A DNA stretch of 61,309 nt, filler included, from Hausera hauseri (taxonomy: Eukaryota), in the NCBI GenBank assembly GCA_046269625.1. It is 7 parts of 7 records of this genome, joined end to end, with 100 filler letters (N's around TTAATTAATTAA, not from the genome) between each part and the next. Parts side by side here need not be neighbours in the genome. Positions count along the whole stretch, not along the records: positions 38,069 to 48,601 come from JBJURY010172194.1; 6 more parts are not named here. One strand, given 5' to 3'. The notes beneath the pieces are model-generated. The model had not been told where the DNA came from, searched no databases, and saw only the letters and a program-made list of their open reading frames with translations. This document shows positions 19,426-60,917 of the stretch, one piece after another; positions within the stretch are counted from its first letter, which is position 1; every line of letters begins with the position of its first letter. Position numbers and translations under genes: made by a program.

Positions 19426-19467
19426 GCATTTTGTTTATAATCACACGTACATATAAATAGGTGCAGC

Positions 19468-24006: not shown

Positions 24007-24007
24007 C

Positions 24008-26008: not shown

Positions 26009-26980
26009 ATACAAGGCTGAACATCAATATCAGACTCAACCGGTAGAGGTAGGAATGAATATACCTATATCGGAACAGGTACAAACAGATAAAAAAGGTC
26101 GTGGAAGACCAAAAGGAACAACAAAACTGTATCAATTAAAAGGCAGAAAAGCTCGAGATGATGAAGTTGTTCGAAGATTATTAACAACGGAAGATGAATA
26201 CGACGTAGACAATGTATCGTTGACAACATTGTTGCAAACTTTGTTAGCACGAATGCATAATGCTTTTGTCGAATTTAATACGAACTTACAGATACCAGAG
26301 CCATTAATGCAAAGTATCAAAAATGAAATCGCAAAGATTAGTGAACAGTTTGCAGACATCCCTACAGATGAGAGGATAAATGAAATTCAAGAGAGGGATA
26401 TCTTATCAAGAATGATGGGAACGGGTATATCTCGAAATAAAATTATAACAGCCATATCTTACCTCTTATACAAAATAATGGTGATGAATGGTGAAAATCC
26501 AAACCAAGAAGAAATAGAGAGAAACATTGAGATTGCTACAAGGGCATTGAAAACTAATGTAGAAGGATGGGTGAAATGTAGAGGAGGATGGATTACCAGT
26601 CTGGTTCATGCCGCAATACATGAATCGGTTCCAACTATACAACGAACAGAACATTTTTCACCTCAACAACCAGAGAGGCAACGAAATATACAACCAGACC
26701 TTGACTTATCATGGTTAACTAAAGTTATACCTATTCTCCTCTTGTTTAGCCTTATGCCAAAAGCACTTTCAATCATTGCTTATGACTGTAGTCAAGCTAA
26801 GGAAGGACCAATATATTCCTTACTGGACCTGGAGAAATGTCCGTTTGCTAATCCGGCTTTATTAACAACAAAAACGGATAAGACATATTATGTTTATCAA
26901 GAATCGGAGTTTGTGAAAACAAAAGTGAAAGAATGTTTTGTCAGGAAGAATCACTTCCATTTCATTTGTGGATACTGGTA
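25992..26980 (+). CDS. env: AT-hook and helical region, signal peptide, and N-terminus of a chuvirus-like glycoprotein (partial)
   Basis: KKGRGRPKG; VIPILLLFSLMPKALS followed by IIAYDC...YSLLDLEKC...VYQ...ECFV...FICG, the characteristic start of chuviral-type glycoproteins. Confidence 0.8.
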
Positions 26981-29782: not shown

Positions 29783-30580
29783 TTAGACAATCTTTTCCAG
29801 ATCCTGTGCATATTGTAACATACTGTGCAAAACATCTAAATGAGGAAATGACTCGGTATTTGAGTTGTCCTTTTCATCAAAATTCACATTTCCATTTGAA
29901 TCACAAACCCAATTTCTGTCTTGTAAAAATTGTCGCACATCATTGTCGTCATTTAAATAAAGCATTTTCATCAGTGCCTGAGTTGATAAGGAATTGTAAG
30001 ATTTTTCCAAACAATCTGCAATTTCATTTCTTGTAGTATGACACAAAACTTTCATGAATACTGCAATCCTCGGAGAATTCACATTGAATTTGGATGAAAA
30101 CAATTCACGATACCATCCCTCCATGAGACACTGTTCAATTTTAATTGGAAATTCGATCGACTCGTTTCTTTTCTCCTCTAGTGACAAAAATTCCAATTCA
30201 GAATGGAATTGTGCCAATTTATTTTGAGAAAGTAAACGAAGTAAATTCAATCCAATCAGTTCACATTTGTGACTTTTGTATGGCAATTTATTTTTGATGT
30301 CGACATAGTAATACTGCAACTGATTGATGTAGTTTTCAAATAATGGAATATTCTCGGTTTCGATAGACCAAAATGCTCCAATTTCCAATATTTCTCTTGA
30401 TATGACTAACAATTGTTCTTCGGATAATTCACTGGAAATTGGTAAATCATTTATGAACATTACTTTTAACTTCAATGACATTAACATGTTTTCAATAAGT
30501 TGTAAATTCCTGTCTTTCTTATTCCATTCATTAACCAATTCTTGATATTCGGAAATGATGTTGGTGGATTCTTGAAACAT
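29783..30580 (-). CDS. PSMD8: 26S proteasome regulatory subunit Rpn12
   Basis: REILEIGAFWSI, LIGLNLLRLLSQNKLAQFHSELE, IEQCLMEG, RNEIADCLEKSY, YAQDLEKIV*; full length, intronless. Confidence 0.95.
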   Translation of the reverse strand: MFQESTNIISEYQELVNEWNKKDRNLQLIENMLMSLKLKVMFINDLPISSELSEEQLLVISREILEIGAFWSIETENIPLFENYINQLQYYYVDIKNKLPYKSHKCELIGLNLLRLLSQNKLAQFHSELEFLSLEEKRNESIEFPIKIEQCLMEGWYRELFSSKFNVNSPRIAVFMKVLCHTTRNEIADCLEKSYNSLSTQALMKMLYLNDDNDVRQFLQDRNWVCDSNGNVNFDEKDNSNTESFPHLDVLHSMLQYAQDLEKIV

Positions 30581-33271
30581 TTTGATTGTTGTTATTAGAA
30601 TATGATTTATGAAAATAATTTATTTAGAAACAAATAATTAAATATTAATATTTATGTTAGGGTTTGTTAACAATTAAGTCCAACAATAAAAATCCAAAGT
30701 TAGCACTCAGAATAATTAACAAAAAAATTTTCCAACTCAAATCAAAATTTTAAATGCAGCACAGCTTATTCTACCCAATCCAAATACAACATAACATTTA
30801 ATTTCGCAATTTTAAAATACTAATTTTTTCCAACTATTCGACAGAAATAATTTCCTCCAGCAGTTCAACCCAAAAGAGCAATTCGACATACAAAATGAAA
30901 TAGACTTTGATATTTATTCTGTAATTCAAAATAATTCAGTGCAGATAAAATAAAACTGACTGTGTGAATATTATTGTTATCAATAATAAATCCTTGATTG
31001 TATAAATGTCTTCTTCTTCTGATATTGTTAAACGCCTTGATGCGTATTCCGTCTATTTTCTGTTTCATGTACATTATTGTTAACCAAAAAGTGGCAAAAT
31101 AACTAATTAAGGGTTAATTAATAACCTTTTTGAAAGTATCTGATTTAATTTCAGATTATCTGATTGTTTGATACTCATTGTTCAATGTGTAGAAAAATAC
31201 GAGGATATTAGTTGTGGATTAAAGAAGTCCCAGAATGTTGGAGAACTTATTCTAATATTTGCAAATTATAAAAGCATAAAGAAAGAGGCATAAATGGTCA
31301 AAGTTTTAACTTAATGAAATTATATTTTGTACTTTGTTGACCGTAGATCTATGAGAAAAAGTAATTAAAAATATTGATGAGTCAGAAATTTCAAATACTT
31401 AATGCCAAATTGAATGATCAAGATGACATGGAGTGTTGTTTCTTTTTTAAAATTTAAATTTGTGATATTGTAACCTGAATTATTAAGTTGACATCAAGTG
31501 CCATTTGGATTTTGAAAATTGAAAATAACAATAGATAAAATGGTAGTTGAAGTTTGGAAAATCCAAACTTGAAGTATTGTTGAAATTTTGAAAATGTCAA
31601 TTAGAGTACCATCGAATTTGGGCAATCCAAAAACGGTAGTATATAAACTGCCAGTAATTGTAGATAACAACCATAATACATACTGAAAACTCTGATAGAA
31701 TTTTAATGAAGTTTTGGTTAATTTTCTTTGTTATTTTATTTTTGTCATTTTTGTTGTTGAAAATGAACGATGTTATAAATTAAATCAACAAGCCGCTGTT
31801 TTTATTCATTTGTAAATTTCGTTATTAATAATAAATATTTTTAAATTGTGAATTATAAATCATTTCTATTTTTAATTCAATTAATGCTTTAGACAAGTGA
31901 AGTATTTCAAAAGATTCAGCAAATATACTGATTAAATATCAAATGTGATTCATAGAAGAAGAAATTGAATGATAACATACATGAAAGGATGTGAATATTT
32001 TACGTTCATAAATTAAAAGGAAACGAGGTATATTGATGAATAGGCGCAGGTAACTTTGTTACCGAACCGCCATGAACCCATGAGAATATTAATTTTCAAC
32101 TTTTATGTTGGATATAATTAAACCAATATGGTGATATCCAAACATAAAATTGGTGGCCAAGATAGGGACATCCTCATTTGAATCATTTGGCAAGATTGGA
32201 AATTATTTATCATTATTGATAATGTGAGTGAAGATTACACAATAAATCAAATATCAAGACAACACTGACTGGAGAAAAGGAAGGAAAATTTTGTCAGAAG
32301 TACAAAATTCCTGAGCATAATGGGAAGACTTGAACAAGTGCTGAAAATCTCCAATCGCCTTATTTTGGCTTCCTTGCAAAATCTTTTCCCATATTGTTTG
32401 TCAAAATTATATTTTACATGTCTCACTGACTATTTGTTGTAAACCTCTGTGTGGCAGTAATAGATGGTAGATATTTTTGTAAAATAAATTCAAGTCCATT
32501 TTTTTCACAATTTTTAATTATTTATGGTGAATACGTAATCATATATTTTTATGTTGCAGTTTTGATGGGGAACGACATTAGAGGAGTAAAGAAAAAAGAT
32601 TTCTTAATTTCAAATTTCCTGAGGAATTTCGACGAACTTCTTAGCTTGTTGTATTTAAACTACAGTTCCGAATGCATCTACTCATTATATATACATGATA
32701 TACATATGGAAAATTATTTAGAAAAACGTTTATTATGAATAACTTGTTGCAGAATTAAAACTTCATTCATTCCATTCCTGGAAAGTACTGTGGAGTAGCT
32801 TTATGAAAGTCTTCTTGATGTTTGTGAAGAAAGTAATTCATTCAACCATTAGTCATTGGTATGGATTGAGACCCAAGTTGCAGGTTTCATAGTACTGTTG
32901 TCGGATTCCAGAACATAATATATTGATGTTTTGGATGATTTCCATTTGTTTTCATTCGAATGAAATAATTTTGACAGACTTTAACCGAATCACATATATT
33001 TTTTGACAAACAACATCGAGATAGTGCAGAATTTTTCGACAGGTCTTCGGCGGTTATACACAGAAATTCGTCAGGCAACATTTTCGTTTGTTGCAGTTAT
33101 GCGTGAGTATTTTAAAAACAGCATCACAACCGTTTATCATGCACGCATTTTTTCATCTTCAATTCCATATTTCTGTCCATAACGAGCAAGTCAGTGGTGC
33201 CCAAATTTCCATATTTCGACACAACTCATGTCGTTCCTATTGTGAGGTTTTCGGCTCTTGCGCCGGTGGGT

Positions 33272-34799: not shown

Positions 34800-37700
34800 C
34801 GCGCAGCCGCATCATGCGCATCAGGCCCATCAGGTGCATCAGGCATATCAGGCGCAGCGGCTCCATCAAAGTGAAAAAGACAGCGGCCAGTTGACGCGGC
34901 AGCATTAAACAGGAAATTCCGCAGATGTGTTATTGATGCAACTGACCAAACAACTATCAAGGAGTTCCTGGAATGTACAAAGGAAGAAACAGAGGGAATT
35001 CTCCAGGACAACATAGCTGAACTCAAGGCCCTTAAGGTTAATATGAAACTGGAGGCTGCATACATCAATGTTGATGACGAAAAATCCAATAGGGCTTTCA
35101 AAACCAAAAATAGGCCCATATTAGAAAACGCCAATATAACAGAGTGGCTGCATGAAGAGCATGCGAAGCTGATCCGTGAAGCTGAGGAGAGTCAGGATAA
35201 GAAGAGTGGATGGACTCTGGCAACCATCAAGCGATTGCTTGTGTATGTTTACAAGTACTCTCAAATGCAGGGCAGTTCTTATATTCAGCTTCCGGAGTGG
35301 ATCGCTAATAAAAAAGCGTGTCAATGTCCATAATAATGACAACATGTGTTTTATGTATGCCGTTTTATGTAAACTCATACGGAATCAAAAACATGCAGAA
35401 GATGGAATTTGGCTATATAATGATCTGAAGCACAACTATGACTTCTAATGTATTAAGTTCCCACCATCCATACATGAAGTATAGAAGTTCAGTCGAATCA
35501 ACAATATATCCATCAACATTATTGAATTGGATTATGAGGACAAATTTTATCCTCTGCAGATATATGATACTGAATTGGAGATCATAGGGATCTGCTCCTA
35601 CTAGACGATGAAGAAAAAAACCATTATGTGTGGATCAAGAACTTTGAGCGTCTAGTCAGATCCCAAATTACGAAACACACAAGAATCGAAATATGCAAAC
35701 AATGCTTTTCCCATTTCAGTGGTGATGCAGCAGTGGAGACGCTTGCAGAGCACAAGATGTACTTCAACAACAATTACTGTATTAGGCCAGAATTTTCCAA
35801 AGAGGATTACACTGAATTCAAGGAGTTCGAGAAGAAGCTCAAGGTCCCAATAGTTATCTATTGCGACTTTGAGGCTATTCAGCGTCCAGTTCAGACATGC
35901 ACTCCCAGTCCTCAATATAGCAGCACAACGGCATACCAATATCATGAACTCTTATCATATTGTGTGTATGCCAAAGGACTGGACATTAACCATTTCTATT
36001 CAGAGGTCCAGGTGCAGCAGCACATTTCATAAAACGACTTGAAGACGTGGCTTATAAGATTGGAGATTTGCAGTAGCAGCATAAAAATAATGTGAGCATG
36101 TCGAAGCAGCAAGAAGAAGAATGGCGCAAGGCAACAACATGTTACTTGTGCTCAAAATCATTCACTAAGGATAATTATAAAGTCAAGGATCATTGTCATT
36201 TTACAGATGCTATTGAGGGACAGCATGCAACAACTGCAATCTACGCTGCAAAACATGTACATATGTGCCTGTGGTGTTCCATTATCTCAGTGGCCATGAT
36301 TCCCATTTCATAGTCCGAGAATTAGGCAGCATTGAAGGAAACATTGAAGTGATCCCCAACAGTGAGGAAAACTACATACCTTTACTAAGCATGTGGGCAA
36401 AATCAGGCTTCACTACATAGACAGTTTCCGTTTCATGTCGTCTTCACTGGATAGTTTAGTGAAGAACCTCCTTGCAGAAGAACTCGAGAAGACGAAGCGG
36501 TTCTTCCCCACTGCATTTGACCTAGTCAATAGGAAAGGCGTGTTTCCTTATCACTACATAACCTCATGGGGAACACTGGACGAGACCTCATTGCCGGCCA
36601 AGAAGGACTTTTGCAATATCCTCTCTGATTACGATATCAGTAATGCTGACTACCAGCATGCTTAAAATGTCTGGCAGGCATTCCAATGCCAAACAATAGG
36701 GGAATACAGTGATATTTATCTCAAGACGGACGTGCTGCTGTTGACAGACGTCTTTCAGAGTTTCAGGAATATCACAATGAAGAGTCATGCATTGGATCAG
36801 GCTCATTTCTTCACGGCTTCAGGGATGAGCTGGGCAGCAATGCTAAGATATACTGGTGTTAGTCTGCAGATCATTAAGGATTACAACATTATCCTTATGG
36901 TCGAGAGAGGCATTCGAGGCGGAATATGCCAGGCCATTCACCGGTATATTTAGGCCAGTAACAAGTACATGGCCGAATACGACTCATCCAAGGAATCCTC
37001 ATATATGTCATACCTGGATGCCAACAACTTGTGCGTATGGGCAATGAGCGTCCCATTGTTATATAATAACTTTAAATGGGTCGAGAATCCTGAAAACATT
37101 CCTATATTGGACCTGGATCCCGCTGGAGATACGGAATATATACTGGAGGTGGATATGGAATATCCGGCTTCCATCCATGCAAGGCATCAACAGCTGCCAT
37201 TCCTCCCGGAGAGCAGGCCTCCGCCCCGTGGAAAGCATAGAAAGCTGCTCTGTCATCTGGGTAATAGGGAGAGGTATGTAGTTTACTACATCAATCTCCC
37301 GCAGGCAGTTAGACATGGAATTTGTATTACTAAGATCCATAGAGCCCTGCAGTTCAGCTAGTCCATGTGGCTGCAGCCCTACATAGATCTCAATACCAAG
37401 ATGCGAACTAATGCTAAGAACGATTTTTAGAAGGACCAGTTCAAGCTTTACAACAACTCGGTCTTTGACAAGACCATGGAGAATATCCGGAACAGGATCA
37501 ACATTGAAGTGGTATGTGACTGGAATCGAGCAAAGAAGCTTATTGCCAAGCCCAACTTCCACAGCAGCATCATATATGCTGAGAACTTGGTCAGCATCCA
37601 TATATTGGAAACTGCGTTGGTATTCAACAAGCCCATATATGTGGGTATGGCAATCCTTGACCTGTCAAAGACCCTGATGTATCATTTCTACTACGACATC

Positions 37701-37968
37701 ATGGTCCCCATGTTCAAGTCCATGCAGCTGATGTATATGGATTCTGATAGTTTCATCTATCAGATCCATACAGATTATATTTGTGAGGACTTTTCCCAGT
37801 TAACCCAACATATGGATACCGCGGTCTATCCGAAAAATCATCCCATCTATTCAGTTGCCAATAAGAAAATCCTAGAGAAATTTAAAGACAAGGTAAATGG
37901 AGCAATTATCTCGAGATTTGTAGCTCTCAGGTCCAAAATGTATGCTCTAGACATATGTGGTCAGATCA
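34800..37968 (+). pseudogene. polB: Second Polinton pPolB, heavily disrupted, truncated at the contig end
   Basis: Collinear with copy 1: KKSGWTL, DNMCF, YCDFE, CYLC...DHCH, RKGVFPY, YLDANNL, MENIRNR, YMDSDS, KFKD. Confidence 0.95.
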
Positions 37969-38068: not shown

Positions 38069-38426
38069 ACTACTGGGTGTGTCCCGATTTCACGCATTCC
38101 TACGATGTTTGACATGGGTATTTCTAAAGTTCGACAATGCTATCGATGCGATATCCAGTTATGATATATCCATATAAACAATGTTCTATCTCGGCCTAAA
38201 CAAGTTTGATGTCTCTACCTCTTGAGAGTGTTTCCTTACGAATTCCTGTCGTATCATAATATTTCTCGCGAACGCGTTATCTCGGACTGATAATAGTACA
38301 ATATACTTCTGTTCCGTTCGTTTCTCGAACTGAGACTTCCATTGGGATCCTTTGTGCATCATCTCCTTCTCCACAATTGATTGCTATGATTCTGGTATTT
38401 CTGGCATCTTTCACTAGTCTATACGA

Positions 38427-38846
38427 TTACAAGAATGTGTCCAAATCCTTTTCTGACGTTACCTTGAACATTAATTTTATATGAAGGGCGGCTACTCTGA
38501 ATTCTAATTCATAATGCTGTAAATCTTTGCTACGTAAGCTAAGAGTACTGAATGTATATTGTCTTCCGTTGTTTGTGTTCCATTCTTGGTCTTTGAACCG
38601 ATAGTATGTCTCACCATCCGCCAGGTGGATATAAATATTCTGATGATGTTCGTATGTTTGGGCATCCTTGTCTTCTCTCATGGCGTAAAGGTAAACAATC
38701 CTATTTTCTTCCGTTATACCCTTTAAATTGTTAGGAATTTTACTGGTCTGATCATACTTCACGAAGGTGTTCTCATGCAAGTTGTTATTTATTTCTCTAT
38801 ATATTGATTTAGAATTAGGGAGAAGGATGGTAGCGTAATTCTGCAA
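38427..38846 (-). CDS. Hypothetical accessory ORF fragment 3' of the second membrane gene
   Basis: 139-aa open frame, co-oriented; splice-acceptor-like TTTATTTTTTAG at ~38979-38990. Confidence 0.4.
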   Translation of the reverse strand: MQNYATILLPNSKSIYREINNNLHENTFVKYDQTSKIPNNLKGITEENRIVYLYAMREDKDAQTYEHHQNIYIHLADGETYYRFKDQEWNTNNGRQYTFSTLSLRSKDLQHYELEFRVAALHIKLMFKVTSEKDLDTFL

Positions 38847-39074
38847 GAACTCGTCAATACTAAGTCGGCGTTTTCGTCATTTATCGATACTACATCGTTC
38901 TCGTTCTTGGATAGATCGTGGTTCGTCGATCCTAGATCATCCGGTATCCGTTTTCGTATTTCTCTCTTTACTCATCGGTCTAAAAAATAAACAGTAAGGG
39001 TTAATCTTACAACAAAGGATGGTTTTAAAATGAAACCAATTCTTTGTTAGATGATAGAATAACCCGATCTGTAA

Positions 39075-40510
39075 TTGTCAGGTTATTTTATCATATACGT
39101 ATTCTTGGGGTTCCAATACCTTTAGTTCCCATTCTAAATTTTTAGGACGCTTAGGACGACAATTTTTGGCAACTAATCGAAAAATCGCAATTAATATAAT
39201 GAGAACAAACGTTGATAGTATTCCAACGAATACGATTGGTAAGGTGGTCAATCTTAGTGGTGCTTGCGTGGTAACTAGAGTTGTGATTTCATTATCTATA
39301 TTTTCATATAATGGCGATCCTGTGCGGATTTCGTCTAGGGTACGTACTTTAATTGTTTGGCTTTGTTTATATTCTCTGCATATACTTACACTATGTATTC
39401 AGATTGTGGTTTTAGCAAATTGCATTCTGTCTGATAAATATTTTTAAGCAACGTTACAATTTGACCATTATATGTTGTTCAGCAATTTATATGTATATCG
39501 TAATTTTGTTTTTCTTCCACAAAGAACACAATTCTAAGTCGATATTTTGAATATGTAATAGGTACGCTTTCTAATTCCTTTTTAGTTATATTGTTCGACG
39601 TAACTGTTCTGGTAGTGGGACTAACTTTAGTGGTCGACTCTTCGGTCGTTGTTCCCACTGGAATTTTCCAAATTCAGTTTTCTGGATAGTAAGTTCGTAA
39701 CTGTGTACTCTGTTTATCGGGTCGTACCTCGTATAAGTCAAATTTTATCTTGAACTCCTGGTTCACGGGTATTTTACAACATGGATGTTGCACGCTTGCG
39801 TGAATAGAACAATATTCTATCTTAGGGGTCGGGCTTTTTATTGCTTCGAATGTGATGCTAATTTCTCGATTGACAGTTAGCTCTGTCCGGGCGTCTACTT
39901 GGATACATTGTTTTTCCCTGTTTACAGAGATTCTCTGGGTATTTTCGTCTAATAGCCTTATATCTGGGTCGGTGGATCGTAGCATTTCGTCAGGTTTTAT
40001 TCCATGATGTCTGTTCCATGCAGGAATGACTAATTGGAATTGTGGCTTTGTTTCGATATAAACTTCGGATGAGTCCGGTAGGTATAGGCGATAAGTAAGA
40101 TTGTAAGTTCGTCCAAAATCTATGTCGCAACACTGTGTATAATTTCCAGGTTCAAAGTCACAGTTTTTTACTTCTTGTGTCGTTACATCGTTTGAGACAA
40201 TTTGAAATCGTCCAAAATTATGGTGTGGCCTCCAAGCCTTAAATCCGATACATACGGAGTTTGGCGAAAAATAATGGATTGTCATTGATTGCAATAATTT
40301 AGTATCTTCTTGTTTTTGGATCTCCTCAGATGTTAATTCTTTTCTTTCCGGGATGTTTTTCGTCTTTACTCCGATTTTCCGTATTCCATATACGTCTCCT
40401 AGTGTAGACTCTTCATTCCACCATTGGGTTTGTGTCCTCGGAGTATAAGGAGCAATCAGTGACAGGGCTAGAACTATTTGAATGTATAATATTGGTCTGA
40501 CGATTATTGA
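39075..40510 (-). pseudogene. Type-I membrane protein in frame with the integrase C-terminus
   Basis: Hydrophobic signal PILYIQIVLALSLIA; two similar Cys-rich beta-type domains; Thr-rich stalk; TM LPIVFVGILSTFVLIILIAIF then basic RLVAKNCRPKRPK (~39140-39245). Frame is disrupted after 39674. Confidence 0.65.
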
Positions 40511-40559
40511 AGAAATCTTTGTTTCGTGTCTGCGTAAATTATAATGCTTGTTAGGTCGT

Positions 40560-41620
40560 ATTTCTGTTTTAACAACTAGTTGTATTGACACTACTTCTTT
40601 CCCGTTTTTGTTGATGTACACCTTAGTTGGTGTAGTCCTAACGATTTCATACGGTCCTCTGCCTGTACATGTCAATGTTAAAGACGTACCTTTTTTAGCT
40701 ACCGGATAATGTAAATAAACCCAATCTCCACTTTAAATCATGCGGTTTTGCTTTCTTATCATATTTCTTCTTAAATTGTTCTTGGTATCCATTAGATATT
40801 TTTTTGGTGATTTTACAACATTTTTGTAACCGTATCTGTAGTATTTCTGCAAAATTTTGTTCTAAATCCTCTGTGATATTTGTATATGGTATCATTCCTA
40901 AATCTGTGGGCAGTACTGCTTCCCGCCCGTACATCATGAAGAACGGTGTAAGTCCTGTCGCTGGATGTGGTGTAGTATTGATGGCGAATTGGGTACCTTC
41001 CAGAAATTCATCCCAATCCTTCTGGTCTTTTGCCACTACTGTGGATAGTATGCGTATGACGGTAGCATTCATTCGTTCGACCATCCCGTTACACTGGGGG
41101 TGATATGCAGTAGTGGTTAATCGTTCGATCTCAAATAGCTTGGTGATTTTTTCGAAAAGTTCACTCGTAAAGTTTTTTCCTCGATCTGTCAATATTTGAT
41201 CTGGCGGTCCATATCTGTAGATGATTTTCCTAACCACAGCTTCAGCTAGGGTTTTTGCTTTCTGGTCAATTAGCGCTATCAGTTCGACAAAATGAGTTAG
41301 TCGATCAATAGAGGTTAAGATATTTTTATTGTTTTTATGGCCTGTATGAAGCGGTCCTACGATATCCATTGACATGGCCTGCATAGGCCTATCCCGTACG
41401 TTAATTGGCTTTAACTCGGCCATGTAATTTTTTATCTTTTGTTTAGTCGCACATACTTTACAGGCACTCACCTAATTTTTTACATTGATATACATACTAG
41501 GCCAAAAATATTTATTTAGTATCCTTTCTAATGTCTTCTTCCAGCACGTGTCTGGCTAAATATGAATCATGTTCCGACATTAACACTTCGGTTTGTAACT
41601 CTTTTGGAATAACTATCAGT
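40560..41620 (-). pseudogene. int: Gypsy integrase
   Basis: H...H...CKVC, MDIVGPL, TDRGKNF, GMVERMN, and GPY motif (GRGPYEIV). Confidence 0.95.
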
Positions 41621-41899
41621 TTCCTTCCTTTTCGTTTGTAATACAAAATGTCTTCCTTGTTTTTATCATTTAAGACGCATTATTTATGTCCATGTCTGTG
41701 TAAATGTTTCTTTAATTGTCGTCCGTTTGGTATAATGTCTCTTTTGGCAAATTCTATAATCTGTTGGATGACTTTATCCTTTCTTTGCTCGGTATAGATT
41801 TTAATTGCTTGATCCATCGTTAGGGCGCGTTGGCGATCTATTACTTCTTCAAGTCGACTTTTCCTCATTACGGTAATTGCGCTTGTTTTGGTTTTTAAC

Positions 41900-43172
41900 C
41901 TTGATAATGCGTCGGCATCTACATGTTTATTTCCTGGCTTATACTGGAATTCGATGTTATATTTAGAGATTTCTTCGATTCATCTATTAAGTCTACATGT
42001 CGGGTTATTTGCTCGGAATTTTAGAGTCCTGATGGCCTTGTGATCAGTGACAATTATAATATTCTGTCCGTATACATAGACGTTGAAGTGTAGAAGTGCC
42101 TCTTTCACGGCTAGAGTTTCTAATTCGGTGACGGAATAATTTTTCTCAGCCTTCTTCAGGGAACGTCCTCCATAAACAATTGGGTGTTCTAATTCTTCAT
42201 TTTCTCTTTTCTGCGCCAATTCATATCCGATACTTTCTTTGCTGGCGTCTGTCTTGATTATAAAGGGTAAGCTAAAATCTGGATATCGTAAAACAGGTTC
42301 GCTTGTTAATATCTTCATCTCGTCGAAAGCTCTTTGTTCGACATCCGTCCATTTCAATTTTATTCCATTTTTAAGGAGACGATATAAAGGTGCATTGATT
42401 TTTGAGTTATCTGGCACATAGGTGACAAAATATCCGCAGAGTCCTAGCCAGTGCCTTAACTCTTTGGTTCTGTGGTTTCATGCAATCTGATATTTTATTT
42501 AATAATCATTTATCCGGTTTTGGTCTTTCTTCTCTAATTATATGGCCAAGGTAAGATACTGCGTTTTGAGCCCATTTACATTTCTTCAGATTTAATTTCA
42601 ATCCGGCTTGTTCCAATCGCATCAGCGTGTGTTCAATATTCTTCAAGTGTTCCTCTTCTGTTTTTGATGCTATAATTACATCGTCTAAGTATGCGAAGGC
42701 ATGGTCCAGTCCCATTAGCATCTGGCCCAGTAGTGACACCGAACGGCATGACATTAAATTCATACACTCCATCGTGTATTTCAAATGCCGTCTTATATCG
42801 ATCCTCATCCTCTATCTCTACTTGCCAGTATCCAGATTGTAAGTCCAGAGTAGTGAACCATTTTTCTCCCGAAAGTCTTTCCAAAGCCTCCTTTAATGAT
42901 GGTAAGGGGAAGGAATCCTTCATCATAAGGTTATTCAATGCTCTGTAGTCAATACGAAATCGATGTTTTGTACCTTTCTTTTTAACCATGAGGATCGGTG
43001 AATACCAAGATCTGTAACTGGGTCTAATTATATCGGCCTTAAGCATCCGTTCGACTTCCTTTGTTATCTCGGATCTCAGTGAATGCGGCGGGAGATACCA
43101 TTTAGGTATCTTCTGATCTTCAAGATCTATTTCTTCATTTGAACCGGGCTTTTTCTTAAGTGGAATAGTCAA
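41900..43172 (-). pseudogene. pol: Gypsy reverse transcriptase and RNase H
   Basis: IDYRALN, DSFPLP, LDLQSGYWQV, MPFG, AYLDDVII; TDASKESIG, YSVTELETLAV, TDHKAI. Confidence 0.95.
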
Positions 43173-43322
43173 TCTTAATGCTTTAGCCCTACCATATCCT
43201 CATCGTCTTTAGCGATCACTGATTTATAACGGCACAACAGTTCATAAAATCGACAATAAGATTCGGGAGAAAATTTAGTTTCTACATGAGGTGGAAATTC
43301 GGCATACTTATAAGGCTTTTCT

Positions 43323-43990
43323 TCAAGTTATAGACGATACCCTATAAGTATTTCCTAGAGTAGTATAAGCATGAAGCTTGACGGGAGTCGATGCATTATT
43401 TGCCATTCTGATCGGTATACGACCGGAGTCTACTCTTGTTAGTATGTTACTAAGTATTATATTCGGATTTAGTGTCTCTTTTGGTTCGAAATATACCGGT
43501 TGATCGTTGTCTTGCTGAATCTGCGCATAGATTATTAACTCTGTTTTCGGCGGAATGCTTTTGTTTACAGGCATCCATACCTCTCCAAATTTCCTTTTTT
43601 TGGCATTTTTCACACTTTTATTTGGTTCGATTTTTATTAATTTTCCTGTTTGTAAGTCGATTGCTATGTTTGGTAACCTTTTCAGTAGATCACATCCTAA
43701 GACTACGTCGTCGGTTAATTGTTCCATAACTGCAAATTCATGACGGAAAATTTGTCCAACTATTTGGACTGCTGGATTTTATTTAAACATCGGTTTCGAC
43801 ATTTGACCAAAAGCTCCTGTACTCCCTGGATCTTTTGTGGATGGTGGATATAATTGTCCTCTTAACGATTGAGGTATCGAATCGTTTTTAATGTAAACCA
43901 TTTTAGACCCTGTATCGATTAAGGCATAAACTTCCCAATCTTCGATAATGACTTTGGCCAAGGGTCTTCCTTCTATCACCGTTCCGAAAC
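43323..43990 (-). pseudogene. Aspartic protease plus PR-RT linker domain
   Basis: YALIDTGS and DVVLGCDLL. Confidence 0.9.
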
Positions 43991-44639
43991 AGCTTGATGC
44001 ATCCTTTGGGCGTTTAGTCGCCGATATCTTGTGTACATTGATTCGGATTTCTCGGGAGGATATTATGTCCTCTGCCAGTTGCTTTAACTCTCCATTTGGG
44101 TATAATTCATTGTTTTTTAGTTCTTCCTCTTCATGAGTACTGATTAATGGTTCTCGGTTCTTAGTGTGCGGTTCTTTGTTCCACAAGGTTCTTAACCTTG
44201 AGTTTTCCCAGACAGGCGATTTAGTCTCTATTTTTCGAGATTCTCTCGGGGAATACAACATCCTGAGATCATCCCCAGGCTGTCGGTAACACATTTTCCG
44301 TAAGACTCCGTAACGTTTCGTTCCTTCGTAAGGGTCTTCTACCTTAATTGTCCTTTTATAGATTTCCGTTTGATATGAACTCATTGATCGTTTGTCACAG
44401 TCTTCATAGACGGGCGCAGTAGGAGGTAGCATAGACAATGATGCTTTAATGAGAGTATGTCTTATGTCTATTTATCCCCGAAAGTGCTTCTCCTCCCTTA
44501 GGCTCGTCATCATCTGAATTATTTCTTCGTGTGTTAGGTTTCGTAAATTTCCGCTTGTACAAGAACATAGGCCTTCCCTTTTGTTTACGATTGTAATTCC
44601 CGACATGGCGTTCTAGGTCCGATTTCCATCTATTTTCTT

Positions 44640-46470
44640 CATATGCTTTTAAGAACTTTCAAAAGGGCGTTATTATTGCAGTCAATATTTTACATGAAAA
44701 TCCAGTCAATGTAAATATTTCGTACCCACTAATTACTGCTTGGATGACTGCCTTGATCATTTGAATTAGTAAATATATTGCCAACAATCCAGATGCTGCT
44801 TGTCCGAAAATTAAAAGTCTTCCCCAAATTTTGTAAAGTATTTCTGTGGTTACTCGTTGGTAATGGTTTACACCAAGTAAGGATTCCCATTTAGCCTGAT
44901 ATCGTGTATCGTCTACTACCGATGCCATGGCTCGGTTTAGTTCATATGTTCGTTGTCGCAGAAAGCGAAGAATTGTCTGAAGGCTTCGATTTCCTTAGGC
45001 CTGTATATGCCTTTCGACGAGGTATCTTGAAATTTATCGTCCGTAATTTCTTTCGCAAGATTTGTTCTTGTTAGTTTATTTGGAGCGGTAGTAATACCTC
45101 CGTTTGGTAAACTAATCCAGTCTGTTTCACGCCGTCTAAACATAGGTTCTCCTAAGCTTGCCTTACAATCTTTAAGAATGGTTGGCTGGGTTGCATTATC
45201 CAATAATACTCTCTTCAACGGTGTAGCTGACCTGGGAGTATTCTGATAAATAACAGGGAGTTCCTGAATGCAACATTTTTCCTCGACGTTGATAGGTACA
45301 TCTCTCTTCGTATTCGTAGGTCAACAGTACCTCGCCCGTGACCCGACCGAAAATTTCTCTCAGGAATTGTTGGAGACGCCAATTCCGGGTTGGCGTATAT
45401 AAGGGCCAATTTCGTCCTCATGATCTCCGTATCTAATTTGCAGTCATTCGTTATCATTTTGTGATGTAACTCCGTTATTCCGACTTATCTTTTGTAATAA
45501 AAGTAATCATCTCTGTTCTTTAAATAATCCTCAATCCGGATATCCTGTGTTTCCAACTTATAGGTCTTCGCATTTATCTCGGTTTCGGCGATAAAGAATG
45601 CCTCACAGATAGTAGCGAACATTACTATGTCACAAGGGGAAATCATCTCCTTTTTAATAAATTTCAGTCCATGCTGATCCGAGACTAATATAGTGGGTGT
45701 AGAGTGTCCCGATAAGTCTTCACTTGTCCTTGAGTTGGTATCAGATTTATTCACATATAGCTTTCCGGTAGTTTCACTAAACTTCAGTTCCTTAATTTTA
45801 ATAAAATTACAACTTCTTCCAGAGAGAGGTTCCCATATTATAACAGAACTTCTAAAAGCAAAGGTTCGGTCTGGTAAATGACACTTTTGATTCTCGGTGT
45901 ATAACTTGGTGACACTATGGAACATTATTTTCTGTGATCGCATCTCCGATTCGTAGAAATCCACGACTACCACGTTTGCTTGTAATCCTTTTCCGGTGTC
46001 GTATTCCGCTTCGTAACAATGTCTGCTATGCATATCTAACCTTCCGACCATTACTTTGTATGCCCTAATTATCTCTCCTGGTTGCATTTCTAATTCCATA
46101 TTGTCCCATTGTACTCTTCCGGTCTCCTTAGCCTGTCTGCAGTGCTGGCGTTCTAAGTTCATTGAGATTAGAGGAGTTCTTGGTTTGATTATTGAGGAAT
46201 GTCCGTGTACTAACCCATAGTGAGAAATGCTACGAGATCGTCTGAGCATACATTTAATTCCGTCTAACGATATCAATTCTTGTTGTTGGTACAGGAAGTA
46301 ATTTTTCTCTCTCGTTTCCAACTTGTGCGGCTTGGCATCTTCGCATACCTCTAAATCCGTTAGGGAATATCTCTGCCCTAGTTTAAATTTATCTCAATCG
46401 TAGACGGTAACAGAGCCTATTTGCTTTATTAGCATTATCAAGGTGAGGAGGTTAATTAACCAAAATGATT
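44640..46470 (-). pseudogene. env: Chuvirus-like (class III, gB-like) envelope glycoprotein, fragmented
   Basis: Signal peptide then VTVYD*...YSLTDLEVC...YFLYQ...IKCML; GIYRPKEIEAFRQF; C-terminal WGRLLIFGQAASGLLAIYLLIQMIKAVIQAVISGY...GFSCKILTAI membrane region. Confidence 0.85.
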
Positions 46471-47130
46471 CACTTTTCCGGAGGCTAATATCCGTGGTTG
46501 TCAAATTTCGTAACATATCGTCGAGTCTATTACTATTACTGGTCCGTTTGTCTTCTTCCTTGTCAAATAGTCTTGACCAAGTTACTTTGTGGGGCAGCTT
46601 CTTCGCTGTTCTTCGTGCTAAGCTTATAGCTCTGTTGATTTCATTCTGTCGATTAGGGATTATTTTGATATTTAAATATAGTAATACTTTTCTTAATTCT
46701 TCGTGGGTGTTTTCCACAATGATCTTTTCGATTACCGCTTCGTTAGTTAAGTTAATTTTTAATAGTTTAAAACGTGAACTTCTCATCATTCTAGCTGCAT
46801 TATATATTACTTTTTTCTTTATCATCTAGTGTGTAACCCCGAAAGCTCGAATAATTTACAATTCGTATCAAGTTCTTCACTAATTCATTTAATTCTTCAT
46901 TGTCGGTACTGAAAGTCGGAATCGACATTTGTCTCAATGCCTAACCAATTCTCCATTATAGTCAACCCCCTCTTGCATCTTTTTAGGCCTACCGACTGGA
47001 TGTTTCTATCTTTGGACATTGGCTGTTACTTCACTCAATGGTACTAAATTCTTGACGTATTGTTCCTTATCCTCATCCGTCTGTAAATACTTGAAATACA
47101 TTGCAGCATCTCGGACTCCCATAATTTGTC

Positions 47131-47784
47131 CTACGCACTGTTCTGTTTGGCCTTCTGCATGGCTTCTACTTTGGTATGTTCATTGGCTATTATTACTACT
47201 ATTCGATTTGTTTCATTGGGAATAATCCCGACATCTATTAATTGTTCTAAATCGTCGAGTATTTTACCTATAAAGTAAAATCTATAATTTAGCTCGTTTG
47301 TTCCACCATTATTTAATAACCATTCTTTTATATCCCTCACATTGAAATATGTAGTGAACTCGCATTCTTTCTCGTCCATCCACTCGGGTGTTACTATTAC
47401 TTTCATTGCCACCTCAGGTTTAGCCCTCACGATTTTAGCGTATTTCCTTATCGGAAATTTCGGCACCGTACTACAAATTGTATTTTCAGTAGATAATTTA
47501 GTTAAGGTCGGAATAAGTTGTCCCAACTTACTCTCAGTAATGTTTACGTTAATTAGTTCAATTAAATCCCTTTCGGTTAGCTCTGAGTCTAGGCACATCT
47601 CTACATTGAATCTCCTGTTCTGCGGACACATTTCTATTTCTTTTAGCTGTACTGGGGTCACACGATTTTCGGCCGTTATCGCATCCAAGTACGCATCCAA
47701 TTCCGGTTTATTCCCAACATCGGGAAGTCCATAGCCTATTAAGTTTGTATTCGTTCTTTGCACATTTTCTCTAATTTCTTTCAA
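47131..47784 (-). CDS. Polyprotein fragment with ubiquitin-like domain (~47190-47406)
   Basis: MKVIV...NVRDIKEWL...YRFYFIGKILDDLEQLIDVGI; homologous to 25739-25950. Confidence 0.7.
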   Translation of the reverse strand: MKEIRENVQRTNTNLIGYGLPDVGNKPELDAYLDAITAENRVTPVQLKEIEMCPQNRRFNVEMCLDSELTERDLIELINVNITESKLGQLIPTLTKLSTENTICSTVPKFPIRKYAKIVRAKPEVAMKVIVTPEWMDEKECEFTTYFNVRDIKEWLLNNGGTNELNYRFYFIGKILDDLEQLIDVGIIPNETNRIVVIIANEHTKVEAMQKAKQNSA

Positions 47785-48601
47785 TCATGGTTGTATTTCT
47801 TTTATCTGTGTAGGTCGGAAACCTATTCCGTTTCCGCAGGCATACTGAATCGTTTTCAGTAATTCGCCTAATTCAATAAAATCAATCAATCCCTTTTGGT
47901 GATAATCAATTAGCTCAATAATTACTTCTCTTTGCCATCTTTGTACAAATTCTCACTTATTTTTAATTTCTGATTCCGTAAAAGCGTATTTATTCCCATA
48001 GCTTTCGAACTCTTTTGACATTTCGTCTAGCCTTGTTGCCCTTTGTTTTGTTCTCTTGCACATTTCTTCTACTTGCCGTAATTTGGGCAATAACTGCCTT
48101 ATCTTCTCATCATTAATCTCCGTCATTTCTACAAATACGTAGGCTAGCCCATACATCTCCTTTATGACTTTTGAGTCGGGATACATTGCATCCAACAATT
48201 TCTTTATGAACTAAGATTCCGCAAAACTAAGATGTTGATCGTTTCTGATTTTTGTTAACTCGGTATGAAAGTTCTGATCCGTACCGTCTATCCATTCGTG
48301 TGGTTTCTGCACGAATTTTACTGCTTCCGTTAGAGCTACTCTATATTCTGGACAAATAGCTAGGGTTTTGTTATCCTGGATTGAAATATCGTCGATAGGT
48401 TTATCTGTTAGATGTTGGACTCCTTTTAGTCGGATGTTTCTTAATCTTCTATAAAAATTGCAAGTTATATTTCGCTTTTCCGTAAAGTTCGTCTCTCGAT
48501 CATTTTATAAATCTCTTCCAATATCATTACTTCTTGCTTCTTCTTCATAAAGTATAGCTGTCGTAGTGCTTCAAATTGAGTTCGTATATCTATTTCTGCT
48601 C

Positions 48602-49430: not shown

Positions 49431-50369
49431 CACAATATTGTTTTGTTTCCAGGTAATTCAAAATGTATTGTATTAAGTTATTAATTTAGTTTGACAGGTT
49501 TTTTTTAGTTTGTAATGCAATATTTAGGTGAATTGATTTGAGTTATAATTGGAAAAGGAAGTTGCCGTTGTTGTATTTTTTAAAGACCTTTAAGTTAATG
49601 TAAAAAATATTAAGGAAATTATGATATTGGGTAATGTGTTATTGTAAGGTTAATTTTAGAGAGTAGAGTTTTTATTTTAATAAAAATGTTCAGATTAAGT
49701 TTTTATTTTATAAGAACATATTTGAGTTGACACAAACTGTTTAGTTTTGTGTCTTGCTGAATAGTTATGTAAATCTGTTTACTTAAATATTCAATGTAGA
49801 TGTGTTATATTCAAGGTTTTACACTGTTATTATCTTGTGAATGTAATAATGTAATAGGTATGTAAATGTTTATTGTGGTAAGGTTCCAAGTTAGTCTGAA
49901 TTGTTTCATTTAAGAGTCTTTTATGGAATATTTAGGTGAACTGATTGGAGTTAAAATTTGAAAAGGAAATTGCTGTTTTTGTCTATTTTTAAGATATTTC
50001 AGTTTATTTAAGTTAAGAAAGATATTATGAAAATGGGTAATGTATTACAATTAGGGTAACATTAGAGGTTATAGGTGTTATTGAAAACAAAGTCAGGTTA
50101 AGTTGTTATTTTTTAAGATTTGTGAAGACATGGTTTAGTTTTGTGTCTTCTTAAATAGTTAGGTAAATCTGTTAATGTAAATATTGTATTTAGATTTGTT
50201 ATATTAAACATTTCACACTAAATTATTATGTTGTAAATGCAATAATATAAAAAGGTATACCAATGTTTAAATGGACTACAAATTTATTAACACAAATACA
50301 AAAAGAATCAAATCTTTATTCCCCCCAAAACCCCACATAAAAAAAAACACATATATAAAAAACGCCAAT

Positions 50370-53300
50370 CACACATCTTGTGGAGTGGTTTGTAGTTCGT
50401 CTAATCCCTGTGTGTCAAGGGTTTCTTTGGTCCTGAAAATGATTTCATACACAGCAAATTAAAAAACATATGTATTACATTTTAGTACCATGAAGTAACC
50501 ATCTAAATTGAATACGATGCAGTACAAACGTATAACTGTATATTTTGCATTAATAAAAGTGAGAATAAGACAAAACTGATTAGGTTTTTTAATGTTGATG
50601 TATGTTATTTTCTGAAATGTTTAATCTAAGAACTGTAAATGAATTTTAAAAACAAATGTATTGAATTGTATTTGATATTTTTTGGTGTTATTGTTAAATA
50701 TCAATTCAAATGTGTTCACTTTAATATTTTATGTAATTTCTTGTTTAAAATATTTTATAGTAAGTTATTATCTTGGAAAGTAAATAAAGATTTGGAAATC
50801 TGAAATTATTCTAGATATTTATAATCCTGTTTGAAAGTACAATATTATATTCTAAAAAACTAGGTTTATAAATGTTTATTGTGTTTATCATATAGTAAGT
50901 TATTTTAAAATCTTGTATAAGAATTTTAGTTTGAAATTGGATGCGTATTTGAATGATTTTTTTTAGAACGAAAATGGTTAATTTTGTTTTTGTCTTGTTT
51001 TTAATTAATGAATAATGATCAGTTATTAATGTTTTTTAAAGGTTTTAGAGAGGGATTAATAGCATATCTATAAAGTGGTTATTAGTATATAGTAATAATA
51101 TTGAAATTTAATTCAATTGAGTTTATTTGTATTGTGCTTAATCACAAGAAATTTTTTGGAGGGTATTTTACAGGAGTATTTACATACATTGAAAAGCCAA
51201 TTAGTAAAGTTGTTTCTGTAAAGAGCATCATTTTATTATCAGAAATAACTAAAAAAAATTCTAAATGAAATAATAAACACTACGATTACAATAGGCCTTC
51301 GCAGCGCTTAGCTGCTCTGGCTTAAAAATAAACAAGGACAGTTACCCATCTTGTGAGGTGATTGGGAGTTTGTCCAATCCTTTTTCGTCAAGGTTTTGGG
51401 TTATTCAAAAAAATATTTGATATAGAATAAATAAAGAATATATATATTTATTACATTTTTTATATCATGAAGCAATAATCTAAAGTAAACACATAAAAAT
51501 TATTTGATGTAGAACCAATTAAAAAATATTCATTACATTTTTTATGTCATTAAGCAATAATGTAAATTAATCACATGCTTTGGTGAAAATGAATATCTGC
51601 ATATTCTATATTAATAAAAGCAAGAAAGAGGCTAAATAGATGTTTTTTTTAATATTAATTTAAGTCTGTTCATTTAATTTTGTTATTTACAGATGTTATT
51701 TAAACATTAGTGAAGGAGTTATTTCTTTTTTAGTATAAGTCTTTGTAAGTTCATTATTTGAACATATAATATTGTTTATATATACTTGTAATGTAGTGAT
51801 AAAGTACAATCTTATATGTGAAGGGAATATATCCTAAAAAAGATTAGTGTTTAAGAATTCTTGATTTAGTTTGAAAAGTTTAATATAAGAACTCTAAAAT
51901 GAATTTAAAAATAAATGTATTTAACTGTATTTGGTAAGTATTTTTTAATTGTTAAACAGTTATTCCAATTTGTTCTTGTAAATATGTAATTGACATTTAT
52001 AGTTTTAAATTTTTTATAGTAAGTTGTTCTGTTGAAAATTTTAAAAATATATTTGAAAACTTAATATTTTAATATAAAATTATTTTAGATATTTGTAATT
52101 TAGTAATAAAGTACAATGTTATATTTTAAAGGAATTTGTTTACGAATGATTACTGTGTTCATAATTGAGTAAGTTATTTAGAAAAATGGAATCTAAGAGC
52201 TTTTGTTTAAATTTGGATGTGCATGTATTTGAATGATTATTTGAAAGGAAATGGTTCATTTTGTGTGTTTTTTAATTAATGAATAATGAATGACCAGTTA
52301 TTAATCATTTATAAAGTTCTTTGAGATATTTATATTTAGCATATTTATAAAGCATTTTTTAGCATCTCATGATAATGAAATTCAATTCAATTGACTGTAT
52401 GTGAATAGTGCTAAATCACATCAAAGTTGTTTTAAGGAATTGTACAGGATTATTGACATATCTCAAAAAGCCAATTAGGTTCTGTAAATGTCCCCCCTCA
52501 CCCACCCCCAAATAAAGGACAATTACCCATCTTGTGAAGTGATTGGGAGTTCGTTCAATCCGTCTTCATCAATGTTTTGGTTTGTTCTAAAAATGATATG
52601 ATATATACCAAATTAAAAAATATATTTATTACATTTTTATACCATTAAGGAATAATTTAAATTAAACACCCATGCTTTTGTGAAAATGAATCTGTGCATA
52701 TTCTGTATTAATAAAAGTGATAAAGAGAGAAAATAGATTATTTTTTGACATATTAATTTGTCTGTTCATTTATATTTGTTCTTTAGAGATGTTATATGAA
52801 ACATTTGTAAATAAGTTAGTACTTTCTAAGTATAAGTTTTAGTAAATCTATTCTTTTAACATATACTATTGTTTATATATAATTGTAATGTAGTGGTAAA
52901 GTACAATATTATATCTTAAGGAAATAGTAAAAAAAGTGTATTGTGTTTTGGAATTATTGAATTATTCTGAAATGTTCAATGTATGAACTGTAAATGAATT
53001 AAAAAAAACAAATGTATTTAATTGTATTAATTAAATTTTTGTAATTGCTAAATAGAGATTCTAATGTGTTTCCTATAATTTTTCATCAAGATTTATAGTT
53101 TTAAATATTTTATAGTAAGTTGTTATCTTAAAACTTTAATAGATTTGGAAACCTAATCTTTTACTATTAAATTATTCTAGACATTTATAATCCAGTGATA
53201 AAGTATAAGATTATATCCTAAAGGAATAGGTTTACGAATGTTTATTGTGTTTTTAACTTAGTAACTTATTTAGAAAACTGGAATGTAAGAGTTTTTGTTT

Positions 53301-53705
53301 AAATCTGGATGTACATGGATTGGAATGCTTATTTTGAAAGAAAATGGTTGATTTTGTGTTTGTTTGTTGTTTAATTAATGAATAATGCCCAGTTATGAAT
53401 GATGTATAAAGTTTTTATAGAATGATTTATAGCATATTCATAAAGTATTTATGTGTATGTAATAATAATGAAATGCATTTCAATTGAGTTTATTTGTATA
53501 GCGCCAAATAATCACAAAGTGGTTTCATGGAATTACATAGAGAAGCTAATTAGTAAAGTTGTCTATCTAAGGAATATTATTTTATTCCAACAAACACCAC
53601 AAAAATAAAACATAAATTAATTAAAAACAGACTATTACCCATCTTGTGGAGTGTTTGGTGATTCATTGCACTCCATGTTTTTCCAGTCCTCCTCTTGTTT
53701 GGAAA
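50370..53705 (-). repeat. Four diverged ~1.0-1.2-kb tandem units, each with a 60-nt exon-like core
   Basis: Cores at 50373-50432, 51346-51405, 52527-52586, ~53638-53700; flanking AT-rich sequence is also homologous. Confidence 0.75.
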
Positions 53706-60915: not shown

Positions 60916-60917
60916 GT

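Follow-up and report, generated by a model that had tools for sequence, protein, structure and literature searches.

Burro/GYPSM1 is a giant gypsy-like element of planarians. According to the available part of its description it has one giant open reading frame (ORF) with gag, a ubiquitin-like domain and an envelope (env) region in frame between gag and pol; the env matches mononegavirus fusion proteins, a dUTPase-like interdomain lies between protease (PR) and reverse transcriptase (RT), some elements contain ankyrin repeats, accessory ORFs are present, and the total length exceeds 30 kb with long terminal repeats (LTRs) that are themselves long (PMC6431247). GAG-ENV-POL errantiviruses with an HSV/gB-type env (HSV, herpes simplex virus) were reported, in the accessible part of that study, from Platyhelminthes, Nematoda and Bryozoa (Chary and Hayashi, PMC13524379). 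LTR elements of bdelloid rotifers carry extra ORFs after pol, including small transmembrane (TM) proteins with cysteines and DEDDy exonucleases, as stated in the sections available (Rodriguez et al., PMC5408684). The present analysis concerns a stretch of 61,309 nucleotides from Hausera hauseri (assembly GCA_046269625.1), which consists of several contigs with N spacers between them and is called the window throughout. The contig at 38069-48601 (10.5 kb; JBJURY010172194.1) was studied on its minus strand. It contains a decayed Ty3/gypsy element whose backbone is known from such systems, and the second surface protein that follows the integrase in frame appears to be undescribed.

For the region behind the integrase the original prediction had described one open frame, which leads from the GPY motif through YNLR into a hydrophobic signal and two similar cysteine domains, followed after disruptions by a Thr-rich stretch, a TM helix and a tail with YDKI. 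All of these motifs were located on the minus strand (Table 1). The stop-free frame comprises 352 codons (40732-39674, minus strand) from the GPY part into the signal and the two cysteine domains, and its length was matched in none of 1000 base-shuffled versions of the contig. That it runs on from the integrase holds for the GPY-bearing C-terminal part, but the integrase core lies in another frame, with a frameshift near 40.73 kb between the two. In domain 1 the motifs are VCI (40255), a single Cys (40162), QCC (40135) and YNLTYRLY (40105), and in domain 2 they are QCI (39910), a single Cys (39811), PCC (39784) and FKIKFDLY (39754). The two domains are a real duplication: their comparison gave z 5.4 for the window, a value reached by 2 of 1000 shuffles, and z 10.9 for the intact homologue P0001, reached by 0 of 1000, and a profile-profile comparison gave E 2e-5. 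The first stop of the gene (39676-39674) is situated just past domain 2. The Thr-rich stretch, the TM helix and the tail follow at 39673-39078, with YDKI at 39095-39084 and the final stop at 39080-39078. Between the Thr-rich stretch and the TM helix a third domain was recognized that the earlier anatomy had overlooked; it is decayed by stops at 39481 and 39388 and a frameshift between about 39395 and 39350. The first Met of the window frame is at 40285, that is, none precedes the signal, and the post-integrase gene has no introns. The region once encoded a type I membrane glycoprotein of a planarian-type gag-fusogen-pol Ty3/gypsy element and has since decayed; the plan of this glycoprotein is a signal, three probably FN3-like domains, a Thr-rich linker, a TM segment and a short tail.

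The homologue P0001 was the sole match among 1.84 billion protein representatives (labels with P denote proteins from protein searches, labels with L denote loci among the 80 found with the RT). It is an intact protein of 479 amino acids (37% identity, E 1e-50), which aligns across the whole broken gene from the signal to the tail (YDRIT in P0001). All ten ectodomain cysteines are in register, and 13 residues of the signal core are nearly identical. A near-length search with P0001 recovered only P0001 itself among 3340 candidates, and its cluster has one member. A metagenome scan with the P0001/window alignment gave 0 of 271 stretches, and no match was found in viral contigs searched with the integrase and with P0014.

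In run X1, from which the window itself may stem, 30,025 contigs with 80-100% identity aligned to the window element and covered 30 of 30 bins. Among the eight pieces listed, four carried the post-integrase gene as diverged copies that differed at 55-80 positions in about 350-500 bases. Because the gene is repeated together with the element it is not a single-copy host gene, and because nearly all X1 depth differs at the first stop, this stop looks private to the window copy. An unrelated host receptor gene beside a dead element, or a one-off passenger inside it, might be considered, since a FN3-TM arrangement is a common host architecture; in addition, ESM Atlas look-alikes of FN3 type were found at 0.78-0.88, below the 0.9 mark and thus at lead level only, those at 0.80-0.88 being host FN3 proteins. 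This explanation is highly improbable and has largely been refuted already: the gene has no introns, is in frame with GPY and repeated with the element, domains homologous to its own occupy the same slot in 14 intact relatives, and a remnant of the element's exonuclease follows downstream. The original prediction had named a match to an unrelated host gene outside the element as a test, and the X1 copies and the exonuclease remnant answered it in favor of the element. The post-integrase gene is almost certainly element-borne.

To collect intact relatives, a protein search was performed with residues 850-2368 of L007 (P0002 is the same protein), and the best 120 of 153 matches, which were listed, are the basis of the clade counts given here. 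Of the 80 loci, L007 and L008 matched best in the integrase. In both of them pol does not end there but continues in frame with an additional protease, which is followed by ankyrin repeats, a signal, cysteine domains, a TM segment and a tail. Twenty proteins (19 listed matches and L008) formed one integrase clade with a support of 98 (SH-aLRT) in a first tree, calculated with a quick fallback method, and 14 of them were recovered with 96/97 in a careful tree of 30 rows, from which near-copies, P0008 among them, and the unrelated rows with the longest branches had been removed. The clade rows also include the near-copies P0004/P0005, P0010/P0011 and P0015/P0017, and the number of independent lineages is therefore about ten. 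A signal-like and a TM-like segment follow GPY in frame in 19 of the 20 clade proteins, P0008 being the exception. As a control, 99 other matches were analyzed: 60 had a recognisable GPY, and eight of these had a later hydrophobic segment, at a threshold of 2.0, which is stricter than the 1.7 used for the clade. Five control proteins had two or more segments, and two of the five, P0042 and P0046, carry the fusogen family there. In P0042, which lies outside the clade, residues 1995-2928 comprise a pol-chromodomain that continues in frame, behind the integrase, into a PF24664 fusogen, and another protease domain and a further hydrophobic segment follow past this fusogen.

The fusogen is part of the same ORF in 12 of the 20 clade proteins, and the other eight start later in the ORF; the records of P0003, P0013, P0017 and P0023 start inside pol. 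The original prediction had proposed to check whether the two glycoproteins co-occur in related elements, and both were indeed present in 11 of the 12 clade proteins with a fusogen. Uninterrupted ORFs were found in P0004-P0011, P0014, P0018, P0020 and P0021. The signal is 77-147 residues past GPY in nine of 18 listed relatives (56 in the window), while the remaining nine have an extra protease domain between GPY and the signal; for all proteins with a second glycoprotein, the extra domain between integrase and signal was counted in 10 of 19. One or more extra retropepsin-like domains after the integrase were noted in P0002-P0011, P0020 and L008. In intact relatives the second glycoprotein is, as read from their sequences, the last part of one giant ORF, and an in-frame polyprotein is very probably the normal state of the lineage. 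The integrase closest to that of the window belongs to P0025 (43-45% identity). The window, on a long branch, groups with P0025 in the careful tree (91/87), and the pair is sister to the clade (93/78). The fusogen pieces of the window, the PR-RT linker, the RT and the integrase all have their best matches in the clade or in P0025.

A profile was built from 29 post-integrase domains of 14 of the 15 proteins offered, using relatives only. Domain 3 of the window reached 25.0 bits with this profile (best of 1000 shuffles 13.0) and domain 3 of P0001 reached 36.1 bits (0 of 1000 shuffles as high). Among 121 proteins the profile matched 14, namely 13 by construction and P0001; among the 80 loci it matched only L007 and L008, and in the six frames of the window only domain 3. 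With a profile of the whole ectodomain only P0001 stood out, and the full window sequence was outside the top 15 of 1004. A direct comparison of the window or P0001 ectodomain with L007 and L008 alone was not significant, and the wider profile was needed. Domain 2 folded alone was predicted to have seven strands (pLDDT 70). Its best structural matches were FN3 domains of cytokine receptors and fibronectin (the best with Z 7.2, rmsd 2.9 Å and 78 aligned residues), most top rows were FN3, and Foldseek also had FN3 domains in its top rows at E 0.02. The full-length model of P0001 had a pLDDT of 44; Foldseek found nothing in the PDB at E 0.001, and the viral rows were uninformative. The check for an Ig- or FN3-like fold thus came out modestly for FN3, and judged from the model of domain 2 the ectodomain likely has an FN3-like fold. 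The ectodomain is 97 to 391 residues long across the relatives. In P0020, P0021 and P0023 a short ectodomain with seven cysteines and a tail with PPxY occupy the slot. P0015 has, besides its post-integrase cassette, a second signal-FN3-like-TM cassette at residues 45-230, ahead of the protease.

In several viruses attachment and fusion are divided between two glycoproteins, as in the pairs of paramyxoviruses (H, HN or G with F) and herpesviruses (gD or gH/gL with gB), and alphaviruses (E2/E1) and flaviviruses (prM/E) derive glycoprotein pairs from a polyprotein. By analogy, the elements treated here combine a conserved fusogen with a more variable surface protein, and their membrane proteins would be cut out by internal signals. 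Unlike in these viral pairs the replication enzymes sit between the two glycoproteins, and no sequence or structural match of the ectodomain to attachment partners of split systems was found. A complex prediction for the fusogen and the ectodomain of P0004, run without an alignment, scored 0.01, which speaks neither for nor against a pairing. The order of the polyprotein is signal 1, fusogen, TM 1, PR/RT/RNase H/integrase, signal 2, FN3-like ectodomain, TM 2 and tail. From standard rules for signals and stop-transfer segments a self-consistent topology with two entries into the endoplasmic reticulum (ER) can be deduced. The chain would enter the ER at the fusogen signal and return to the cytosol at the fusogen TM; the enzymes would be made in the cytosol, signal 2 would mediate the second entry, and TM 2 would anchor the protein. 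Both ectodomains would then be luminal and the enzymes cytosolic. Signal peptidase and one or more element proteases would free the parts, and the extra protease domain between integrase and signal 2 could release the integrase from the membrane. By eye, the second signals end in small residues at -3 and -1 in most rows. As both glycoproteins are on one chain, they would be made 1:1.

The two glycoproteins diverge at different rates. P0005 is 94% identical to P0004 in the fusogen, the RT and the integrase alike, and 58% identical in the post-integrase ectodomain. The values for P0006 versus P0004 are 68% (fusogen), 86% (RT), 85% (integrase) and 21% (ectodomain), and those for six further rows are 38-44%, 58-72%, 62% and 15-25%, respectively, calculated on partly aligned columns. 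Divergence is thus far quicker in the ectodomain than in the fusogen or pol, whereas the signal and the TM segment are retained. A gene that is kept open while its outside part changes fast is what contact of its product with host molecules would lead one to expect, as far as identities alone can indicate. The second protein may therefore be a putative attachment or adhesion protein beside the fusogen, for which a probability of about 45% is given: a variable receptor-binding protein would dock the particle or the producing cell on its target, and the conserved class III protein would fuse the membranes. It is tempting to speculate further, and more tentatively, that a clade of invertebrate endogenous retroviruses possesses a two-glycoprotein entry machine, in which a class III fusogen that is conserved and an FN3 receptor-binding protein that evolves fast and can be swapped are both cut from one polyprotein of 3000-4000 residues; this chain would enter the ER twice, with the replication enzymes as a loop between the two. 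The post-integrase slot might then be an exchangeable tropism module and the whole the first split attachment/fusion system in a retroelement.

Several observations weigh against this reading. Class III fusogens can work without a partner, as rhabdovirus G and baculovirus GP64 do. Domains 1 and 2 were not significant with the relatives-only profile (18-396 of 1000 shuffles as high), the best structural match of domain 2 is below the tool's mark of Z 8, and Pfam fn3 matched neither the window pieces nor P0001 (for L008, Fn3_Dep-1_1st reached only E 0.021). Of the 19 ectodomains, those of P0009, P0018, P0020, P0021 and P0023 differ in type from the profile, and two of these five, P0009 and P0018, are without any cysteine. 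The window is a long branch and its node is unstarred in the careful tree, and its RNase H has its best matches outside the clade. P0025 has the fusogen and ends 64 residues past GPY. P0008 and P0038, the latter further out, also have a fusogen without a second protein, and if P0025 and P0038 are included, the second protein is present in 11 of 14 fusogen-bearing proteins. Short-pol relatives are under-counted because the query carried the post-integrase extension and the search covered proteins of 1302-4144 amino acids. The test of the original prediction, whether relatives stop right after the integrase, was answered mostly in the negative: 19 of the 20 sister-clade proteins continue, but P0008 and the nearest relative P0025 stop. 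Furthermore, gene calling gave P0001 as a gene by itself, whose own Met precedes the signal, and fused longer forms of the P0001-type ectodomain were found in 0 of 1009 candidates among proteins of 512-2000 amino acids, in a weak word-index search.

The last points also bear on expression, and they would suit a separately translated ORF3 in the sub-lineage of the window, with its own start or a spliced RNA and with the open junction as a product of decay. The Met of P0001 and the stop of P0025 after GPY agree with this, and the only X1 contig listed that crosses the integrase junction does not differ from the window and perhaps represents the same locus. Burro accessory ORFs, according to the available text, may be free-standing or inside the polyprotein (PMC6431247). 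However, the window frame lacks a Met before the signal, 19 of 20 sister-clade proteins are fused, and gene callers also start past a frameshift or stop in damaged copies, e.g., P0003, P0013, P0017 and P0023. A separate ORF3 is thus considered rather unlikely; it concerns expression, is independent of any functional reading and compatible with each of them. The claim of a separate protein at the classical env position was accordingly kept in part: an element-borne type I membrane protein is encoded there, but it is most likely the last part of a polyprotein.

The fast divergence that suits receptor switching suits an arms race as well. With the same gene and processing, the protein might act in the host cell as a decoy or receptor mimic, for immune modulation or for blocking re-entry of related elements. 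The structural neighbours include cytokine-receptor FN3 domains, and other cargo of the lineage is host-modulating (ankyrin, ubiquitin-like, exonuclease; and BIR, MATH and BCL2-like domains in Burro, as far as its available description goes, PMC6431247). The additional cassette of P0015 ahead of the protease would fit too, as would Yxx-hydrophobic motifs in ten of 18 tails and in P0001, which are a raw count without a chance control. Such a role is considered less likely than attachment, in view of the fixed position and the predicted 1:1 synthesis with the fusogen in most relatives and of tails that are short, not conserved and devoid of a common signalling motif; the FN3 fold by itself is no proof of function. 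Since another type of ectodomain is seen in five of 19 proteins while signal and TM are kept, the slot is conserved and its content modular. It could even be that membrane anchoring is the selected part, with signal 2 tethering pol and integrase, the tail recruiting sorting or budding factors, and the ectodomain as a replaceable spacer. The persistence of signal and TM in 19 of 20 proteins with such variable ectodomains, the PPxY motifs in the tails of P0020, P0021 and P0023, and the extra protease domain in 10 of 19 are in line with that. It is nevertheless improbable, as 14 of 19 proteins keep between one and three folded, disulfide-patterned domains, which goes beyond the needs of a spacer. 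Taken together, attachment is favored over a decoy and over a mere anchor, and no result separates attachment from a decoy.

Table 1. Features of the decayed element on the contig at 38069-48601 of the window.
Feature	Position	Strand	Basis
Decayed Ty3/gypsy element, gag-fusogen-pol type	38069..48601	-	N-spacer boundaries; Pfam PR, RT, RNase H, rve and PF24664; both element ends beyond contig
ORF1 piece with ubiquitin-like stretch (47346-47188)	47131..47784	-	Resembles pre-fusogen region of 8/11 relatives, best E 1e-6 within set
Class III (gB/Monjiviricetes-type) fusion glycoprotein, broken	44659..46465	-	Signal 46465-46412, ectodomain, TM 44817-44743; PF24664
pol: protease (DTG 43922), PR-RT linker, RT (YLDD 42691), RNase H	41680..44471	-	Disrupted by stops and frameshifts
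Integrase core	40695..41471	-	PF00665 E 3.7e-14; integrase tree
Integrase C-terminal part (GPY 40657, YNLR 40543), opens the 352-codon frame	40532..40732	-	GPY...YxLR motifs common to relatives
Signal peptide inside the frame (core of hydrophobic residues 40495-40451, cleavage probably near 40424)	40421..40495	-	By eye; hydropathy of 15 residues 2.25
Domain 1 with four Cys and two N-glycosylation sequons	40031..40288	-	Repeat of domain 2; strands in low-confidence P0001 model
Domain 2, four Cys, seven-stranded FN3-like sandwich (predicted)	39683..39940	-	Model pLDDT 70; structure comparison
Thr/Ser-rich linker	39554..39673	-	12/20 residues Thr/Ser; Thr run at same place in P0001
Domain 3, two Cys, probably FN3-like	39336..39553	-	Homology to domains behind the integrase in intact relatives
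TM anchor (39242-39180) with basic stop-transfer residues, and a tail of 33 residues that ends in YDKIT	39078..39242	-	Hydropathy 3.05
149-codon frame	38427..38876	-	Repeated in run X1; no Pfam match at cut-off
Decayed DEDD-type exonuclease	38094..38426	-	17.4 bits versus 8.9 best of 1000 shuffles (profile of L007/L008 ORFs)

The backbone of the element was analyzed with Pfam, which yielded PF24664, RVP (E 0.005, below the cut-off), RVT_1, RT_RNaseH and rve in the order typical of Ty3/gypsy. PF24664 matched the window fusogen with E 1.1e-13 and 3.7e-7, and all four fusogen pieces match 13 of the 15 relatives tested (best E 3e-34). The 14 best matches of the PR-RT linker are all clade proteins; it is conserved as a domain, yet has no Pfam match. 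The GPY module behind the integrase core was aligned with L007 and L001 by tblastn. The ubiquitin-like stretch was below the cut-off with Pfam ubiquitin (E 0.059). The window copy has many stops and frameshifts, and its ORFs are interrupted; the order, with the fusogen ahead of pol, is kept in broken frames. No gag match was found in the contig, which begins inside ORF1, and gag is seen in relatives. No long direct or terminal repeat, and thus no LTR, was found in the contig, and element-like sequence reaches both of its ends. A BCL2-like reading of 46825-46394 had no Pfam support.

Downstream of the glycoprotein gene the 149-codon frame is probably the start of an accessory ORF. Its likeness to ORF2 of L007 was not significant (z 2.3), and it was rejected as a homologue. 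The exonuclease remnant has no direct Pfam match. In L007 and L008 exonuclease ORFs come after the TM protein as well, two in each locus (L007 7268-10374 and L008 6861-9923), and PF00929 was found in two of these four ORFs. Between them a short tandem repeat is present, of which the copies are 89 and 78 bases apart and have a core in common.

Elsewhere in the window a second element of the same family was found (24023-26980, plus strand, on the contig 21882-26980), with gag at 24023-25018, a zinc knuckle, a ubiquitin-like region, a signal and the start of a fusogen. It is cut by the contig end, and its best matches belong to the same clade. Two family-B DNA polymerase genes are located at 5881-9499 and 34875-37967 (both plus strand), the first with an open frame of 1066 codons and the second broken; by eye they resemble Polinton/adintovirus pPolB. 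Also by eye, a frame at 13997-14455 (minus strand) has the look of a Polinton-type capsid piece and another one at 19441-19944 (minus strand) that of a TATA-binding-protein-like piece. An intronless ORF for the proteasome subunit Rpn12/PSMD8 is at 29783-30619 (minus strand; 182 bits with human, 132 with plant and 107 with yeast), and its greater closeness to the human protein makes an animal host probable. The regions 49700-59200 and 60400-61309 are rich in A and T and made up of degenerate repeats, whose periods are about 1.1 kb, 1.78 kb and 128 bases.

The comparison with the described systems shows both likeness and difference. As in Burro, which is known here by its description, the relatives with a fusogen (2694-4057 amino acids) have gag, zinc knuckles, ubiquitin-like and ankyrin regions and PF24664 in a giant ORF, and 12 of 20 clade proteins have the env in frame behind gag and ahead of pol. 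The place of the ankyrin repeats varies: they are after the integrase in L007, L008 and P0003 and before the protease in P0007, and with Pfam neither they nor MATH, BIR or BCL2-like domains were detected in the incomplete window copy. In contrast to Burro, MATH, BIR and BCL2 were also not seen among the 15 relatives scanned, and the available description of Burro names no signal-FN3-TM protein after the integrase (PMC6431247). Like the gB-type errantiviruses, the lineage combines a Ty3/gypsy pol with an upstream class III env that has a signal and a TM segment, and six Schmidtea env rows in the accessible part of supplement 2 share motifs, by eye, with the alignment of the relatives and with the window fusogen (PMC13524379). 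This likeness makes a flatworm a likely host. Unlike the lineage of the window, the elements treated in that study, as far as its text was available, have three ORFs, and its search was not extended to other arrangements; its main text makes no mention of fibronectin, immunoglobulin/Ig-like or accessory proteins, of an ORF4, of an in-frame layout or of Burro (PMC13524379). The ORF3 of the rotifer elements, in contrast, is separate and replaces env; the sections available describe no upstream fusogen together with a second surface protein and do not mention fibronectin (PMC5408684). In the literature searched no description of a signal-FN3-TM protein after the integrase was found; coverage of the planarian-element literature was incomplete, and such a protein may have been mentioned before.

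The feature exists, belongs to the element and extends across the lineage. Ty3/gypsy elements that carry env have been described with one envelope protein, and a second, co-translated surface protein would add to that, in a polyprotein layout that has membrane proteins on both sides of pol. How env-carrying elements outside Drosophila move between cells was called elusive in the available part of the errantivirus study (PMC13524379). If the hosts are planarians, as the family likeness suggests, an animal tractable by RNA interference with multi-copy intact elements would be at hand (up to 215 copies in the accessible part of supplement 1, PMC13524379). The faster-evolving second protein is a candidate determinant of the preference for cells or hosts, or of how these elements meet host defence.

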